Source: an uncultured Gammaproteobacteria bacterium
Lineage (GTDB): Bacteria; Patescibacteriota; Patescibacteriia; PEXW01
Assembly (NCBI GenBank): GCA_964486505.1
Contig: CAZAMC010000002.1
Span: 65,656 to 129,655 of the forward strand
DNA: 64,000 bases
Reading direction: 5' to 3'
Shown: piece after piece, positions 6,718-62,491 of the stretch
How positions within the stretch are numbered: position 1 is the stretch's first letter
How the letters are laid out: each line of letters opens with the position of its first letter
Made by a program: the position numbers and the translations under genes
Notes under the pieces: model-generated
What the model was told of the DNA's origin: nothing
Databases searched by the model: none
The model's input: only the letters and a program-made list of their open reading frames with translations

Positions 6718-6840
6718 CGAGCGAAGTGAAGCAAACTTGCTGCACTGGCTACGCAAGATTGCTTCGCCCGCCGAATGGCGGGACTCGCAATGACAAACAC
6801 CCGCTCTGGAGAAGAGCGGGCGGGAGAGAAGTATAAGAGA

Positions 6841-12563: not shown

Positions 12564-13157
12564 ATGCGTATGAATAAGCGACGTGTGCTTGCCCTCGGGC
12601 TCGTTGGTGCGGCGTTTTTTGCTGTGGTCTCTGCACAGACCACGTCTGCTGCGGGCTCGCCATTTGATGCTCTGTGGAGTGCGTTGAACGCGCTGGAGGA
12701 ACGCGTTGATAACCTTAACCTCATTCCTGGGCCTCCAGGGCCAGAGGGTCCGCAAGGTCCACAAGGCGAAGTTGGCCCCCAAGGCCCGGCCGGTGCCGAT
12801 GGCGCGACTGGCCCCCAAGGTCCGCAAGGTGAGCAAGGCCCAATGGGACCGCAAGGGCTAACCGGTGCCACTGGTCCGCAAGGCCCGGCCGGTGCCGATG
12901 GTACTGCTGGGAACATTGAGCTTCGCACTCGACGGGGGACTGACGTCACGAGCGCTGGCCCGATTATCGATGCGGTTGCCTTCTGCGAACTTGATGAGAC
13001 ATTAGTGGGCGGTAGTTACGAGCTTTCCCAAGCGGATGCCCACACCTTTGCTGCGCACATTGTGATGATCGGGCAACCTGCGTGGCTCGTCCACGTAAAA
13101 ACCGTGGGCATTCCTACAACGGTTACCGCCATTGCGCACTGCATGAAGATTGTCTAG
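12564..13157 (+). CDS. secreted collagen-like triple-helix repeat protein
   Basis: signal peptide [26 protein letters not shown], then ~20 uninterrupted GXY triplets ([25 protein letters not shown]...), ~80-aa C-terminal globular domain. Confidence 0.75.
12729..12914 (+). repeat. collagen GXY triplet repeat region inside 12564-13157
   Basis: in-frame ggX ccX/caa gg triplet periodicity over ~186 nt. Confidence 0.8.
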
Positions 13158-13306: not shown

Positions 13307-14530
13307 ATGGCAAAGCGAAAAAAGCAACCGTATTCTATTTGGTGGCACGCGGCGGTACTTGCCATGGTGGTTATCATTGGTGCAGTTTTCGTTTTCCAAT
13401 GGCAGCGGCGCCCCGCGGCAAGTTCTACTGTCGGGCAGGGAATGCAACCCGTTCGCCAGCCTGACGTACTCGTGCTCGCCCAGAGTCCGTTGCGTGAAAG
13501 CATTATTGCTGCAGGCGACTACCTCATCCGGCAGCAGCTGCCCAACGGTGACCTCACCTACCAAGTAGATGTTGTAACCGGGAACCGGAATGTTTTACCG
13601 GTTTCAGTTCGGCAACTGGCTGCGACGAGCGGCCTGTACACAGTCTGCCAAGTGAGTAGAGACCAGAAATACTGCGATGCTGCAGACCGAGCTCTTGCCT
13701 ACTACTGGAAGGATATTGTACCCGTGCCAGCACCGTACCAAGGGGTATGCTACTTCTCCACCGGTGGTTGCCTCACGGGCGCCTCGGGCATTGCCATTGA
13801 CGCGGTGTACAAGCGCTGGCTCGCTACCGGCAACGTGATGCTCGGTGATGAGAATCTCCTGGAGACTGCCCGAGCAATTGGCCGCTTCATTACGAGTTTC
13901 AAGCTGGAGGACGGTACGTACGGCGAACTGCTCTACCCGGTTGCGGGTGGCATTGTGGATCCGTTCTACACGTCCTGGTACAACCCTTCTGAATCGGTGT
14001 ACGCATTGGCAGAACTCTACGATATGACCGGAGAGAACGTTTGGCTGGAGAACGTACAGGTGCTCAACGCATTCCTCGAGAGCAAGCCCGCCACCGCCGA
14101 CCAGTGGCATAGCCACGCGCTGAATATTCTCACGAAGCTTGGCAAGGCGAACAAGGACGACATTGCTTACGGGAAGAAGATTAGCGGAGCAATCCTTGCG
14201 AAAGAATCGGCAACTCTGGTGCCAACAGCTTCAGCCTTTGACCTAGGCACGAAGGTGGAGGCCCTGGCCGCCCTCGCGCAAGTCATGGCACGTTCTGGCG
14301 AGGGTCACACACAGCTGGCCGATGCGGCGCAGCGGTACATTCAGTTCTTGCAGGTTCGTCAGATGCCTGACGTTCAGTGCGGGTGGAAGATAACCGACGT
14401 CGAAAAGGCGCGCTACGCCGGGGGGTTTATTACGAACTGCGACGAGAGCGTCATTCGTGCAGACACGGGGCTGCACTGGATTTACGGCGTTACTGCTTTC
14501 CTGGAATACCAAGCGCTGGCTGCCTCGTAA
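13307..14530 (+). CDS. membrane-anchored hypothetical protein of unassigned fold (start moved from 13277 to Met with GGAGGA RBS)
   Basis: N-terminal TM helix WWHAAVLAMVVIIGAVFVF, then ~380-aa soluble domain with no recognisable catalytic motifs. Confidence 0.5.
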   Translation: MAKRKKQPYSIWWHAAVLAMVVIIGAVFVFQWQRRPAASSTVGQGMQPVRQPDVLVLAQSPLRESIIAAGDYLIRQQLPNGDLTYQVDVVTGNRNVLPVSVRQLAATSGLYTVCQVSRDQKYCDAADRALAYYWKDIVPVPAPYQGVCYFSTGGCLTGASGIAIDAVYKRWLATGNVMLGDENLLETARAIGRFITSFKLEDGTYGELLYPVAGGIVDPFYTSWYNPSESVYALAELYDMTGENVWLENVQVLNAFLESKPATADQWHSHALNILTKLGKANKDDIAYGKKISGAILAKESATLVPTASAFDLGTKVEALAALAQVMARSGEGHTQLADAAQRYIQFLQVRQMPDVQCGWKITDVEKARYAGGFITNCDESVIRADTGLHWIYGVTAFLEYQALAAS

Positions 14531-14544
14531 AGAAGCCCGACCTG

Positions 14545-14575
14545 CGCAACGAGCTGGCGGAGAGGGAGAGATTCA
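14545..14575. repeat. direct repeat copy 1: duplicate of tRNA-Ser 3' terminal 19 nt plus 8 nt of 3' flank
   Basis: aacgagctggcggagagggagagattc identical to 14724-14750. Confidence 0.85.
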
Positions 14576-14720
14576 CCCCCATAGGTCATGGAGGCATGTT
14601 CCTGGTTGGGGTCCCCACAACTGTGGCGCGCAGCGCAGTGAGCACGCAGTTGTGGGGCAAAGCGAGGCTTCGCACAGAGGGCGGAGCTTTTCGCGGTCAC
14701 GCGAAAACGGAGCTCGACGG

Positions 14721-14751
14721 GCGAAACGAGCTGGCGGAGAGGGAGAGATTC
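14721..14751. repeat. direct repeat copy 2 (overlaps genuine 3' end of tRNA-Ser)
   Basis: 27/27 nt identity with 14548-14574. Confidence 0.85.
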
Positions 14752-14819
14752 GAACTCTCGATACCTTTCGGTATACTCGCTTTCCAAGCGAGCGCACTAG
14801 GCCACTATGCGACCTCTCC
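14732..14819 (-). tRNA. tRNA-Ser (anticodon GGA), class II with long variable arm, encoded CCA
   Basis: GGAGAGG acceptor, D-arm AGTGGCCTAGT, anticodon loop TTGGAAA, variable stem-loop TACCGAAAGGTA, T-loop TTCGAAT, CCTCTCC-G-CCA. Confidence 0.9.
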
Positions 14820-14827
14820 GTGAATAA

Positions 14828-15085
14828 TTATCGCTTCTTTATCGTGCCATCTAGTAAGGCACGAAATTGCACTCCACCTTTGTACTTTTTTACTCTTTGC
14901 TCCATTCCGTGTGCCTCACTTCTGGTCTGGTATTGTTCCATAAATACAACCTTCCAGGGCATTCCGATCTTCGTCGAGCGTACAGCGCCACGATTATGTT
15001 GAGCCAACCGGCTGGCTACATCCTCGGTGTGACCAATATAATACCGACCGTTTCGAATACTCTGCAAAATATACACCGTAAACAT
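14828..15085 (-). CDS. GIY-YIG nuclease family protein (YhbQ/UPF0213-like, 85 aa); track ORF extends to 15130 but Met at 15085 gives canonical N-terminus MFTVYILQS
   Basis: VYILQSIRNGRYYIGHTEDVASRLAQHNRG = GIY-(x10)-YIG motif with R and QH residues. Confidence 0.8.
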   Translation of the reverse strand: MFTVYILQSIRNGRYYIGHTEDVASRLAQHNRGAVRSTKIGMPWKVVFMEQYQTRSEAHGMEQRVKKYKGGVQFRALLDGTIKKR

Positions 15086-15129
15086 AGTTGAGCTTTCTGC
15101 CGCGGAGCGGCATCCCGCTCCGCGGGACA

Positions 15130-15218
15130 AGCGAGCGCACTAGGCCACCCACCGCGATACGGGGCCCCGCTTCGCGGGATATGCTTGCCCCGCCGAATGG
15201 CGGGGCGACCTCTCCACG
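15130..15218 (-). pseudogene. tRNA-Ser 5'-half fragment (nt 1-11 and D-arm through anticodon-stem 5' strand) interrupted by a 55-nt GC-hairpin insertion
   Basis: GGAGAGGTCGC ... GTGGCCTAGTGCGCTCGCTTG identical to the intact gene at 14785-14819; no 3' half present. Confidence 0.55.
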
Positions 15219-15342
15219 AAGAGCGAATGTAGCATACCGGTCACTTCTTTCAAGGGCAACTGCCACTCCGCCGTCATTGACATTCCGAAGAGGCACGAGT
15301 ACGTTCTTTGTAGTTCCTTAACTTCGAGATTGGAGGTATTCA

Positions 15343-15543
15343 GTGTCTCGAACACAGCTCCCCGTTAGTAAGGACGGCGTTTCGATTGATCTTGGCGCGA
15401 CCGCCGAGGCAGCACGAAAAAATGTCGATCGCGACAAGGCGGGAACGCCCGTCCATGCATGCGGACTGGTTAGTCATAGGGACTGCCCCTGCTGGGTCTG
15501 CACGTCCAAGTCATGCGCCGCATGTAATGCCAGCCTTATCTAG
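15343..15543 (+). CDS. 66-aa Cys-rich small protein (GTG start after GGAGG RBS)
   Basis: RBS ttGGAGGtattcaGTG; C-terminal HACGLVSHRDCPCWVCTSKSCAACNASLI (7 Cys in 25 aa). Confidence 0.35.
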   Translation: MSRTQLPVSKDGVSIDLGATAEAARKNVDRDKAGTPVHACGLVSHRDCPCWVCTSKSCAACNASLI

Positions 15544-15618
15544 CTGGCGGGTCAGCCATTATTTTAAAGGCGTGCGCAACCCGCACGCCTTTTGCACACC
15601 GTACGCTATACTACACCT

Positions 15619-22415: not shown

Positions 22416-22490
22416 TCCGGGGTAGCTCAGTGGTAGAGCAGGCGGCTGTTAACCGCTTGGTCGCAGGTTCGAATCCTGTCCCCGGAGCCA
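22416..22490 (+). tRNA. tRNA-Asn (anticodon GUU), canonical, encoded CCA
   Basis: TCCGGGG acceptor, D-arm GCTCAGTGGTAGAGC, anticodon loop CTGTTAA, T-loop TTCGAAT. Confidence 0.9.
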
Positions 22491-22670
22491 ACACCGCGTT
22501 TTTACATACCGGGTAGCGAATCACCGCGGATGGCGGGACCCCGCTTCGCGGTGGGTGGGCCCGAAGGGCGGGTGCGACCCATCGGAAGCACCCGGGAAAG
22601 AGCAGGCGGCCACTCCGGAGAAATATCGAAAATCATCGTATGCCAGGGAAACGTGCTGTACACTACACGC

Positions 22671-26266: not shown

Positions 26267-26292
26267 TCCCGCCAAGCCGGCGGGTGTTTTGT
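26267..26292 (+). terminator. terminator-like hairpin directly upstream of tRNA-Asn copy 2
   Basis: cccgcc-aagcc-ggcggg followed by TGTTTTGT. Confidence 0.45.
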
Positions 26293-26294
26293 AT

Positions 26295-26370
26295 TCCGGG
26301 GTAGTTGAGTTGGCACAACGCCGCGCTGTTAACGCGGATACCGCAGGTTCGAGTCCTGCCCCCGGAGCCA
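26295..26370 (+). tRNA. second, divergent tRNA-Asn (anticodon GUU): same acceptor stem as 22416 copy but different D-arm, anticodon stem and T-loop
   Basis: TCCGGGG-TA-GTTG-AGTTGGCA-CAAC-G-CCGCG-CTGTTAA-CGCGG-ATACC-GCAGG-TTCGAGT-CCTGC-CCCCGGA-G-CCA folds as canonical cloverleaf. Confidence 0.8.
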
Positions 26371-62464: not shown

Positions 62465-62491
62465 ACGTCCCGCCGTACGGCGGGACGTTTG
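62465..62491 (+). terminator. hairpin terminator (weak U-tract) after the Cys peptide
   Basis: acgtcccgcc-gtac-ggcgggacgt perfect 10-bp stem then TTTG; TATACT -10-like box follows. Confidence 0.55.

Follow-up and report, generated by a model that had tools for sequence, protein, structure and literature searches.

This analysis concerns a small locus within a 64,000-nt stretch of DNA (the window), where a gene for a stand-alone GIY-YIG protein is followed almost directly by a complete tRNA-Ser(GGA) gene and where the two lie between fragments of tRNA-Ser, the upstream one interrupted by hairpin-forming modules. From a comparison with related loci (written as L and a number, each a fetched locus that, except for L170, encodes a relative of the window GIY-YIG protein) we think it probable that the unit is a small selfish cassette of the homing type, which would break a tRNA gene and supply a replacement for it. 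A preliminary description, made from the letters of the window, had seen here a scrambled tRNA-Ser locus, either a decayed island or a mini-element. The features, in 5' to 3' order, are these:

15226-15253, minus strand: sigma-70-like promoter-like site (TTGAAA, 16 nt, TG-TACATT), directly 5' of the pseudo-tRNA-Ser
15205-15215, minus strand: pseudo-tRNA-Ser nt 1-11 (ggagaggtcgc), matching the intact tRNA-Ser
15183-15204, minus strand: hairpin module 1, 22 nt (cccgccattcggcgggg + caagc), between tRNA nt 11 and 12, with an 8-bp stem at 15187-15206
15149-15179, minus strand: hairpin module 2, 31 nt, a double hairpin (tcccgcgaagcggggccccgtatcgcggtgg) in the D-loop, between tRNA nt 14 and 15
15128-15148, minus strand: pseudo-tRNA-Ser nt 15-35, ending at the first anticodon nucleotide, 21/21 identical to 14785-14805
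15098-15127, minus strand: hairpin module 3, 30 nt (TCCCGC-gga-GCGGGA T GCCGC-tcc-GCGGC A), inside the anticodon, between its nt 1 and 2
15086-15097, minus strand: gaaagc (tRNA nt 36-41) and a 6-nt leader before the ATG, read from the sequence
14828-15085, minus strand: GIY-YIG nuclease gene, 85 aa, of the stand-alone Slx1/YhbQ (UPF0213) type (Pfam PF01541)
14732-14819, minus strand: intact tRNA-Ser(GGA), called by ARAGORN (Rfam tRNA, 56.3 bits)
14575-14731, minus strand: 26-nt 3' flank of the intact tRNA and structured spacer (8-bp and 11-bp hairpins), together 157 nt, from sequence and folding
14529-14574, minus strand: tRNA-Ser 3' fragment, nt 69-88 (14555-14574), with a 26-nt flank (14529-14554), repeating the 3' end of the intact gene

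The 5' pseudo-tRNA of the preliminary description is present, and its copy from the D-arm to the anticodon stem is exact; its start lies at 15215, the earlier value of 15218 having taken in 3 nt of flank. Hairpins do interrupt the D-arm, where a single 55-nt insertion had been reported, and the interruption measures 56 nt and consists of two modules (53 nt in total) with tRNA nt 12-14, 'ata', retained between them. The perfect 11-bp hairpin noted further on also exists, ending at 15125 rather than 15126 (15100-15125, with a 4-nt loop), and is one of two ways to fold the third, 30-nt module, the other being two hairpins. The copy runs on past this module: gaaagc, the remainder of the anticodon loop and the beginning of the 3' strand of the anticodon stem, continues the tRNA for 6 nt before the leader. 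What had been called a hairpin insertion is in fact three copies of conserved modules that belong to an element family. The site at 15226-15253 is the sole promoter-like site on the minus strand within 14400-15600 and may act as a promoter; a tgctacRtt element is likewise seen 5' of the pseudo-half in L006.

The intact tRNA-Ser begins 8 nt past the stop of the GIY-YIG open reading frame (ORF). Compared with shuffled sequences, the region 14548-14731, made up of the spacer and the repeated tRNA 3' end, has a folding z-score of -2.8, and the description of the spacer as structured stands. The 3' fragment starts in the T-loop at GAATC, and its flank abuts the stop of a convergent 417-aa ORF. An exact 27-mer repeat is found as reported, with its second copy one position off (14548-14574 = 14725-14751), and a longer similarity of 46 nt at 87% links 14529-14574 to 14706-14751. 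Both fragments are identical to the intact tRNA, over 32/32 and 20/20 nt. A chance origin is ruled out, since two exact repeats, one of 21 nt and one of 27 nt, in roughly 1 kb are no accident; our own estimate, not computed by a tool, is that about 1e-7 chance repeats of a 21-mer would be expected. Rfam at E<=1 returned only tRNA for the region, and only tRNA again for 20 related loci, where weak sub-threshold matches to Plastid-psbl-rps4 and sX4 merely overlap the tRNA. No GIY-YIG remnant came up when six-frame translations of the spacer, of the surroundings of both tRNA-Asn genes of the window and of the sequence 5' of the locus were searched with a hidden Markov model. On the best reading the cassette covers about 555 bp, 15127-14575 (module, nuclease ORF, complete tRNA-Ser(GGA), a little 3' flank and spacer), and is flanked by what is left of a tRNA-Ser(GGA) gene: upstream a 5' fragment that is broken in the anticodon and carries two further modules, downstream a 3' fragment that begins in the T-loop. 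Its neighbours are PanD, Tag and the 417-aa ORF, which has no Pfam match.

The assignment of the 85-aa protein to the YhbQ type is borne out. It matches PF01541 (GIY-YIG) at E=6e-15, with 55.7 bits against a gathering cut-off of 22.6; Pfam gives no other domain, leaving the catalytic domain alone, and NCBIfam gives no match. The closest solved structures are of UPF0213 (1zg2, 1.3e-9; 1ywl, 1.1e-8), with SLX1 chains at 6e-6. In an alignment of relatives Y5, Y16, G18, H30 and E62 are invariant and R26 nearly so, and the subclade of the window protein has a KKYKGG motif of its own. By its sequence the protein is thus a member of the stand-alone bacterial Slx1-like clade, which consists of the minimal domain without accessory domains (Dunin-Horkawicz et al. 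2006, PMC1564403), and a predicted nuclease. Against its closest homologue, in L006 (66% aa identity), nonsynonymous divergence (dN) is 0.26 while synonymous divergence (dS) is saturated, which argues that the ORF is kept by selection. The family is large, a profile search giving 18,720 clusters (50% identity) at E<=1e-3 and 4,263 at E<=1e-10. Exact-sequence look-ups with the GIY-YIG protein (as 85 aa and as 100 aa), with PanD and with P0160, the 100%-identical 417-aa neighbour, returned nothing. Gene calls in this family need care: P0006, P0007, P0009 and many of P0010-P0159 carry N-terminal extensions of 20-55 aa (e.g. ...VPRSGMPLRG...) that are translated hairpin module, and proteins of the same series have C-terminal tails (AERSNALDCKSSG...) that are translated tRNA-Ser. 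These extensions are a systematic annotation artefact, made of translated tRNA or hairpin DNA.

How general is the association with tRNA genes? In the first four close homologues looked up, a tRNA-Ser lies within 10 nt 3' of the ORF in 4/4. A scan with one genome per species then gave 493 confirmed relatives, the best 80 of which were examined, making 81 loci with the window. A same-strand tRNA gene abuts the ORF in 69 of the 81: downstream, as in the window, in 55 (type A) and upstream in 14 (type B). In 37 of the 55 type A loci part of the same tRNA is repeated upstream, no more than 160 nt from the ATG; the uninterrupted upstream copy ends at anticodon nt 1 or 2 in 15 loci and after nt 14, in the D-loop, in 7. 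Type B loci carry a partial tRNA copy 3' of the ORF in 13 of 14 cases. Pseudo-parts of the 3' end downstream of the intact tRNA occur in L009, L013, L014, L051, L065, L066 and L074, and the T-loop junction of the window's 3' fragment is found also in L013, L014, L074 and L169. In many loci the ORF even extends into the tRNA and has its stop codon there, as with the TAG in ...gtcgcaTAGtgg. The tRNA identities comprise Ser (four anticodons), Tyr, Thr, Glu, Pro, Met, Gly, His, Ala, Asp, Gln and Lys, with single calls for Phe and Leu, and the hosts are mostly Patescibacteria, together with Bacteroidota, Planctomycetota, Poribacteria, Dehalococcoidia and others. GIY-YIG genes beside tRNA fragments are therefore recurrent among the loci examined, and the suggestion of a GIY-YIG-associated mini-element that uses tRNA-Ser is strengthened and widened: the layout of gene, tRNA, fragment and hairpins is present in dozens of genomes and at many tRNA identities. 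The nearest relative for both cassette and Tag is a metagenome-assembled genome labelled Patescibacteria, and L001 adjoins a Tag gene and has the same 5' half and hairpin module 5' of its ORF; homologues of the 417-aa protein, at 38-42% identity, are labelled Anaerolineales.

Some of these loci are tandem arrays. In L023, L062 and L035 (Bacteroidota) the GIY-YIG ORF and a tRNA-Pro are repeated together, the repeated tRNA copies having the D-arm replaced by CCCCGCC-N4-GGCGGGG and still being called tRNA by ARAGORN and Rfam (45.6 vs 64.9 bits). L081 (224-1476) and L083 (1402-2638), both from Poribacteria, contain arrays of 107-nt units, as many as eleven in tandem, that adjoin the GIY-YIG ORF on its upstream or downstream side, each unit a tRNA-Pro-like cloverleaf whose anticodon arm is replaced by a hairpin, TTCCGAT-NNN-ATCGGAA.

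The nature of the fragments is clearest in relatives whose flanking fragments do not match the central tRNA. In L009, joining the 5' half found upstream to the 3' half found downstream restores a perfect cloverleaf, a tRNA-Ser(GGA) with acceptor stem GGAGGAG/CTCCTCC, as against GGAGAGA/TCTCTCC in the central tRNA, and each half ends in a module within the anticodon context (ggcttg-module-gaaagc). Because the rejoined halves differ from the central tRNA, we conclude that a resident tRNA gene was split inside its anticodon by an insert composed of module, ORF, complete tRNA, spacer and module. The flanking D-arm and T-arm of L066 match the type of tRNA that L060 has and not the central gene; in L166 the downstream 3' half has a variable arm different from that of the central tRNA; and L169, laid out like the window with a D-loop module upstream and a 3' fragment that starts at the T-loop GAATC, has a fragment that again differs from the central tRNA. 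Modules or fragments also differ among the window, L006, L166 and L169. In such clearer relatives the central tRNA is, as far as sequence can tell, a replacement borne by the cassette, and where the preliminary description had only the 5' portion of the tRNA replaced, the relatives indicate that the whole tRNA is supplied. The proteins give signs of movement: a protein's nearest neighbour sits beside the same tRNA identity in 39 of 60 cases, against 13.7 ± 3.5 under permutation, and there are 21 switches of tRNA identity between nearest neighbours, for example between Tyr- and Ser-linked proteins that are 73% identical.

The hairpin modules are a second hallmark of these loci. Perfect GC hairpins occur at 4.46/kb within 200 nt of the ORF vs 0.71/kb in the flanks, with CCGCC and CCCGC dominating the stems, and the strict motif TCCCGC-N3-7-GCGGGA has 47 occurrences in 85 GIY-YIG loci vs 3 in 80 control loci, which were fetched with the Tag gene. 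In the GIY-YIG loci the motif lies nearly always just 5' of the ATG or just 3' of the ORF or tRNA. Modules sit precisely in the loops of the redundant tRNA copy, either as insertions or as replacements. Insertions in the anticodon read cttg/30 nt/gaaagc in the window, cttgg/35 nt/aaagcg in L060, L063 and L024, G/TA in tRNA-Tyr and TG/T in tRNA-Thr. The D-loop insertion between nt 14 and 15 is shared by the window, L002/L018, L010, L019, L021, L055, L166 and L169 with near-identical modules, that of L002, from an AT-rich genome, being almost identical to the window's and at the same position. A module replaces the D-arm in L023, L035 and L082 and occupies the T-loop in L014 and L075; the CCCCGCC-N4-GGCGGGG-CAAGC form of module 1 is present also in L012, L036 and L064. 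Across 19 modules RNAalifold predicts a pair of neighbouring hairpins, and 4 of the 11 base pairs show compensatory changes, covariation that supports the two-hairpin fold. Modules are found in both orders (A-B in the window, B-A in loci of the L060 type), and they bound the cassette on both sides in L009, L065, L066 and L166. Between the window and L006, pseudo-half nt 15-35 and the 30-nt module show three differences, two of them in the module. Such near-identity, despite saturated synonymous sites, indicates that the 5' fragment and its module are constrained, or homogenised by gene conversion, and that they are not a decaying scar.

Related hairpins were also observed elsewhere in the window. 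At 6767-6782 (plus strand) CCCGCCGAATGGCGGG repeats module 1 (15189-15204) exactly, also in the loop, and shares its GCTT-type left flank, in an intergenic setting with other hairpins and no recognisable tRNA fragment. The window has two tRNA-Asn(GTT) genes, 3.9 kb apart and different in sequence. Just 3' of the first (22416-22490), positions 22491-22640 (plus strand) hold ordered pieces of tRNA-Asn (ccgggtagc, gtgg, agagcaggcggc, ccggag) interleaved with GC hairpins, one of which, ccccgcttcgcggtgggtgg, is nearly the D-loop module of the tRNA-Ser fragment and of L002; this resembles another pseudo-tRNA riddled with hairpins, and no GIY-YIG gene is near it. A hairpin, CCCGCCAAGCCGGCGGG, lies at 26268-26284 (plus strand), 10 nt 5' of the second (26295-26370). 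Finally, 62465-62488 (plus strand) is a perfect 10-bp palindrome, ACGTCCCGCC-GTAC-GGCGGGACGT, placed 3' of the stop of a small Cys-rich ORF, followed by TTTGCTAT and terminator-like in appearance. Since this palindrome matches the strict motif, the motif is not exclusive to the cassette.

How could such a unit spread and persist? What the sequences show is the anatomy of the locus, its recurrence, the split resident gene in relatives and the constraint on ORF and modules; the nuclease activity, its target and transfer by homing are predictions. We propose that a promoter 5' of the 5' fragment would drive a single transcript running from the 5' fragment through the module and the nuclease mRNA into the tRNA, as suggested by the sole promoter-like site and by the mere 8 nt between stop codon and tRNA. 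The tRNA would be released by normal tRNA processing, and the complete tRNA would keep the cell supplied. With nuclease and tRNA on one transcript, the nuclease could presumably not be silenced without silencing the tRNA. The nuclease would cut tRNA-gene DNA in a loop region (anticodon, D or T loop), and repair of the break would copy an occupied allele, the two tRNA halves serving as homology arms in the manner of homing; several such rounds, or unequal repair, could yield the nested fragments and tandem arrays. The hairpins would mark the ends of the cassette and disable the leftover fragments, and with those fragments wrecked recombination should be unable to restore the old gene.

Several observations weigh against this proposal. 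The window by itself is compatible with local duplication or with a conspecific donor, its fragments being identical to the intact tRNA and the 26-nt flank being duplicated at 87%; because local duplication would look alike there, the argument for a foreign cassette rests on the relatives. The tRNA of an occupied allele carries the same loops as the presumed target, and how self-cleavage would be avoided needs explanation, a weak point of the proposal. The 85-aa protein lacks a DNA-binding domain and has no obvious means of recognising a sequence, while every characterised GIY-YIG homing enzyme has, to our knowledge, such a domain. No empty-site allele was recovered from a Tag-based metagenome scan or from comparison with L170. 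The scan gave 80 loci, the best 66% identical, with a GIY-YIG gene or tRNA-Ser in 0 of them; L170, whose homologue of the 417-aa neighbour is 53% identical, shows neither tRNA nor cassette downstream and is uninformative as an empty site because synteny is not conserved. The arrangement on the Tag side is common to the window and L001 (Tag 80% aa identity), which fits long vertical inheritance. The hairpin region before the ATG is repeated beyond the tRNA in only 10 of 54 loci, and 3 of those 10 are tandem arrays or shared terminators. Viral contigs yielded no relatives, and phage and plasmid collections marginal matches only, for which reason no vector for the cassette is known.

A more specific and speculative version of the proposal, possible in our view and on balance doubtful, starts from the minimal, Slx1-like character of the enzyme. 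Here the structure-specific nuclease would cleave hairpins or cruciforms extruded at the anticodon, D or T loop and then install an addictive cassette that replaces the tRNA; it would exploit natural palindromes of tRNA genes together with its own GC double-hairpin modules, and its own tRNA would be transcribed only through the nuclease gene. Such elements would form a class of minimal mobile elements not recognised before and very widespread. Cutting of hairpins or cruciforms would explain why the modules are palindromic and occur in both orders, and resolution of a cruciform at its base would explain the whole stem-module-stem palindrome on both sides of the cassette in L009, L065, L066 and L166.

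Of the explanations that dispense with a selfish cassette, the one that survives best is a host operon, which we nevertheless judge unlikely. A host GIY-YIG factor, with a role perhaps in tRNA metabolism or in repairing DNA where tRNA genes are heavily transcribed, would be co-transcribed with the tRNA, the fragments would stem from in-situ tandem duplication and decay, the hairpins would serve as leader, processing signal or terminator, and nothing would be mobile. Such an operon would accommodate the identity of the window fragments to the intact tRNA and the duplicated 3' flank, the synteny with L001 suggestive of vertical descent, the purifying selection on the ORF and a leader hairpin conserved beyond neutral expectation. 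It would also fit the plain terminator-like site at 62465-62488 with its similar hairpin, and the excess of U.G over A.C pairs in the module stems, which is compatible with an RNA role. A separate count of G.T against A.C in hairpin stems, made to tell RNA-level from DNA-level structure, gave 7 versus 4 and does not distinguish the two. However, in L009, L066, L166 and L169 the flanking halves come from a different tRNA allele than the central one, and the protein clade resides at Ser, Tyr, Thr, Glu, Pro, Met, Gly, His, Ala, Asp, Gln and Lys genes, with close relatives switching among them. Moreover, the break points cluster in tRNA loops, the anticodon is lost in the module-bearing copies, and the occurrence of modules in both orders would be odd for an RNA leader.

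The modules might instead be independent repeats, similar to repetitive extragenic palindromes (REP) or miniature inverted-repeat transposable elements, or generic terminators, accumulating in non-essential DNA and untied to the nuclease. The related hairpins elsewhere in the window (6767-6782, 22522-22558, 26268-26284 and 62465-62488) and the tRNA-Asn copies with no GIY-YIG gene nearby are what this would predict, yet we rate it as distinctly unlikely: it does not lead one to expect the strict motif at 47 in 85 GIY-YIG loci vs 3 in 80 controls, precise insertions that recur at identical positions of the tRNA in genomes unrelated to one another and far apart in GC content, or modules on both sides of the cassette in the four loci named above.

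A decayed island or prophage, integrated at tRNA-Ser by an integrase and since stripped of all but its GIY-YIG gene, was one of the two options of the preliminary description, and we reject it as very improbable. A direct repeat of the tRNA 3' segment does bound the insert (27 nt exact, 46 nt at 87%), and the T-loop is reportedly a classical sublocation of crossover. But the absence of an integrase noted before extends beyond the window, no integrase or transposase being found beside the cassette of the window or in 5 kb of flanking sequence at L001, L002 and L004; a unit of constant size, about 0.5 kb, recurs in 69 of the 81 loci with the ORF always abutting the tRNA; and the 5' part (nt 1-35) is duplicated as well, which is unlike the product of a tyrosine integrase, as are the hairpins inserted in loops. 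A group I or archaeal-type tRNA intron with a homing-endonuclease ORF is hardly credible, for although the insertion point lies in the anticodon loop, the classical site of tRNA introns, a complete tRNA follows the ORF, about 40 nt besides the ORF leave no space for a ribozyme core, and Rfam finds tRNA only and no intron family.

Among known systems the nearest analogue is SegB, a free-standing GIY-YIG homing endonuclease from the tRNA gene cluster of phages T4 and T6, which recognises the TpsiC stem-loop motif of tRNA genes and homes together with neighbouring tRNA genes (PMC2330249); it drives tandem tRNA/segB amplification (PMC13096335), by way of homology between the 3' end of the ORF and the 5' end of the tRNA (PMC2330249, PMC13096335). 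Common ground with the cassette is a GIY-YIG gene amid tRNA genes, spread together with neighbouring tRNA genes being the property of SegB, and on the side of the cassette an ORF end that abuts or overlaps the tRNA 5' end, a T-loop junction and tandem arrays (L023, L062, L081, L083). SegB, however, is phage-borne and site-specific, with a 27-bp recognition sequence, whereas the window protein is chromosomal, 85 aa long and of the Slx1/YhbQ clade; and SegB loci are without a split resident tRNA, target-gene replacement or hairpin modules. SegB is also much larger than the 85-aa protein and has a DNA-binding domain. More generally, Seg-type homing endonucleases combine an N-terminal GIY-YIG domain with a C-terminal DNA-binding domain, and the window protein lacks the latter.

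To UPF0213 (E. coli YhbQ, B. subtilis YazA; PDB 1zg2, 1ywl) the protein is alike in sequence family, size and minimal domain (PMC1564403), but tRNA linkage, pseudo-tRNA and hairpin modules are unreported for that family in the literature searched, and the KKYKGG motif marks the cassette subclade. Integrative elements of tRNA genes likewise insert at the anticodon or T-loop, keep a functional tRNA and displace a 3'-end duplicate; in contrast, the cassette has no integrase, measures about 0.55 kb rather than many kb, brings a whole tRNA and leaves both fragments. Short GC-rich palindromes around a small nuclease gene, with scattered solo copies, recall REP and the associated RAYT transposases (REPtrons) and IS200/IS605, yet these use a Y1 transposase rather than a GIY-YIG enzyme, and the cassette modules sit in tRNA-gene loops with no sign of single-stranded DNA transposition. 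As with group I introns that carry a GIY-YIG ORF and with 'collaborative homing', in which an ORF-less insert pairs with a free-standing endonuclease next to it, a target gene is interrupted at a conserved functional site with a nuclease gene beside or inside it, but Rfam finds no ribozyme in the cassette, and what restores function is a second copy of the gene rather than splicing.

In the full-text-searchable literature, which excludes many subscription papers, nothing was found that connects the small GIY-YIG genes of bacteria with tRNA genes, pseudo-tRNAs or hairpins of this kind. The cassette is thus apparently undescribed, and unusual in its minimal Slx1-like enzyme, its replacement of the target gene and its loop-specific hairpin modules. 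If our reading is correct, it would give concrete biology to the large UPF0213/YhbQ-like family, so far without a function, and would reveal a novel strategy by which a selfish gene settles in an essential one, namely replacement and not splicing. It would account for the pseudo-tRNA fragments, the tRNA-like sequences broken up by hairpins and the tandem arrays of tRNA seen in Patescibacteria, Bacteroidota, Planctomycetota, Poribacteria and others. A nuclease of this minimal kind, able to find the loops of tRNA genes, would be relevant to structure-specific cleavage, to the evolution of tRNA genes and to the origin of split tRNA genes.

Two further observations concern sequences outside the cassette. 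In L064 a cyclic di-AMP riboswitch (2416-2539; Rfam 39.9 bits, gathering 38) lies about 0.6 kb 3' of a GIY-YIG/tRNA-Glu cassette, to which it is probably unrelated. In the window itself, 12564-13157 (plus strand) encodes a 197-aa protein with a signal-like N-terminus and collagen-type GPQ/GEx triplets (Pfam Collagen, 7e-10).

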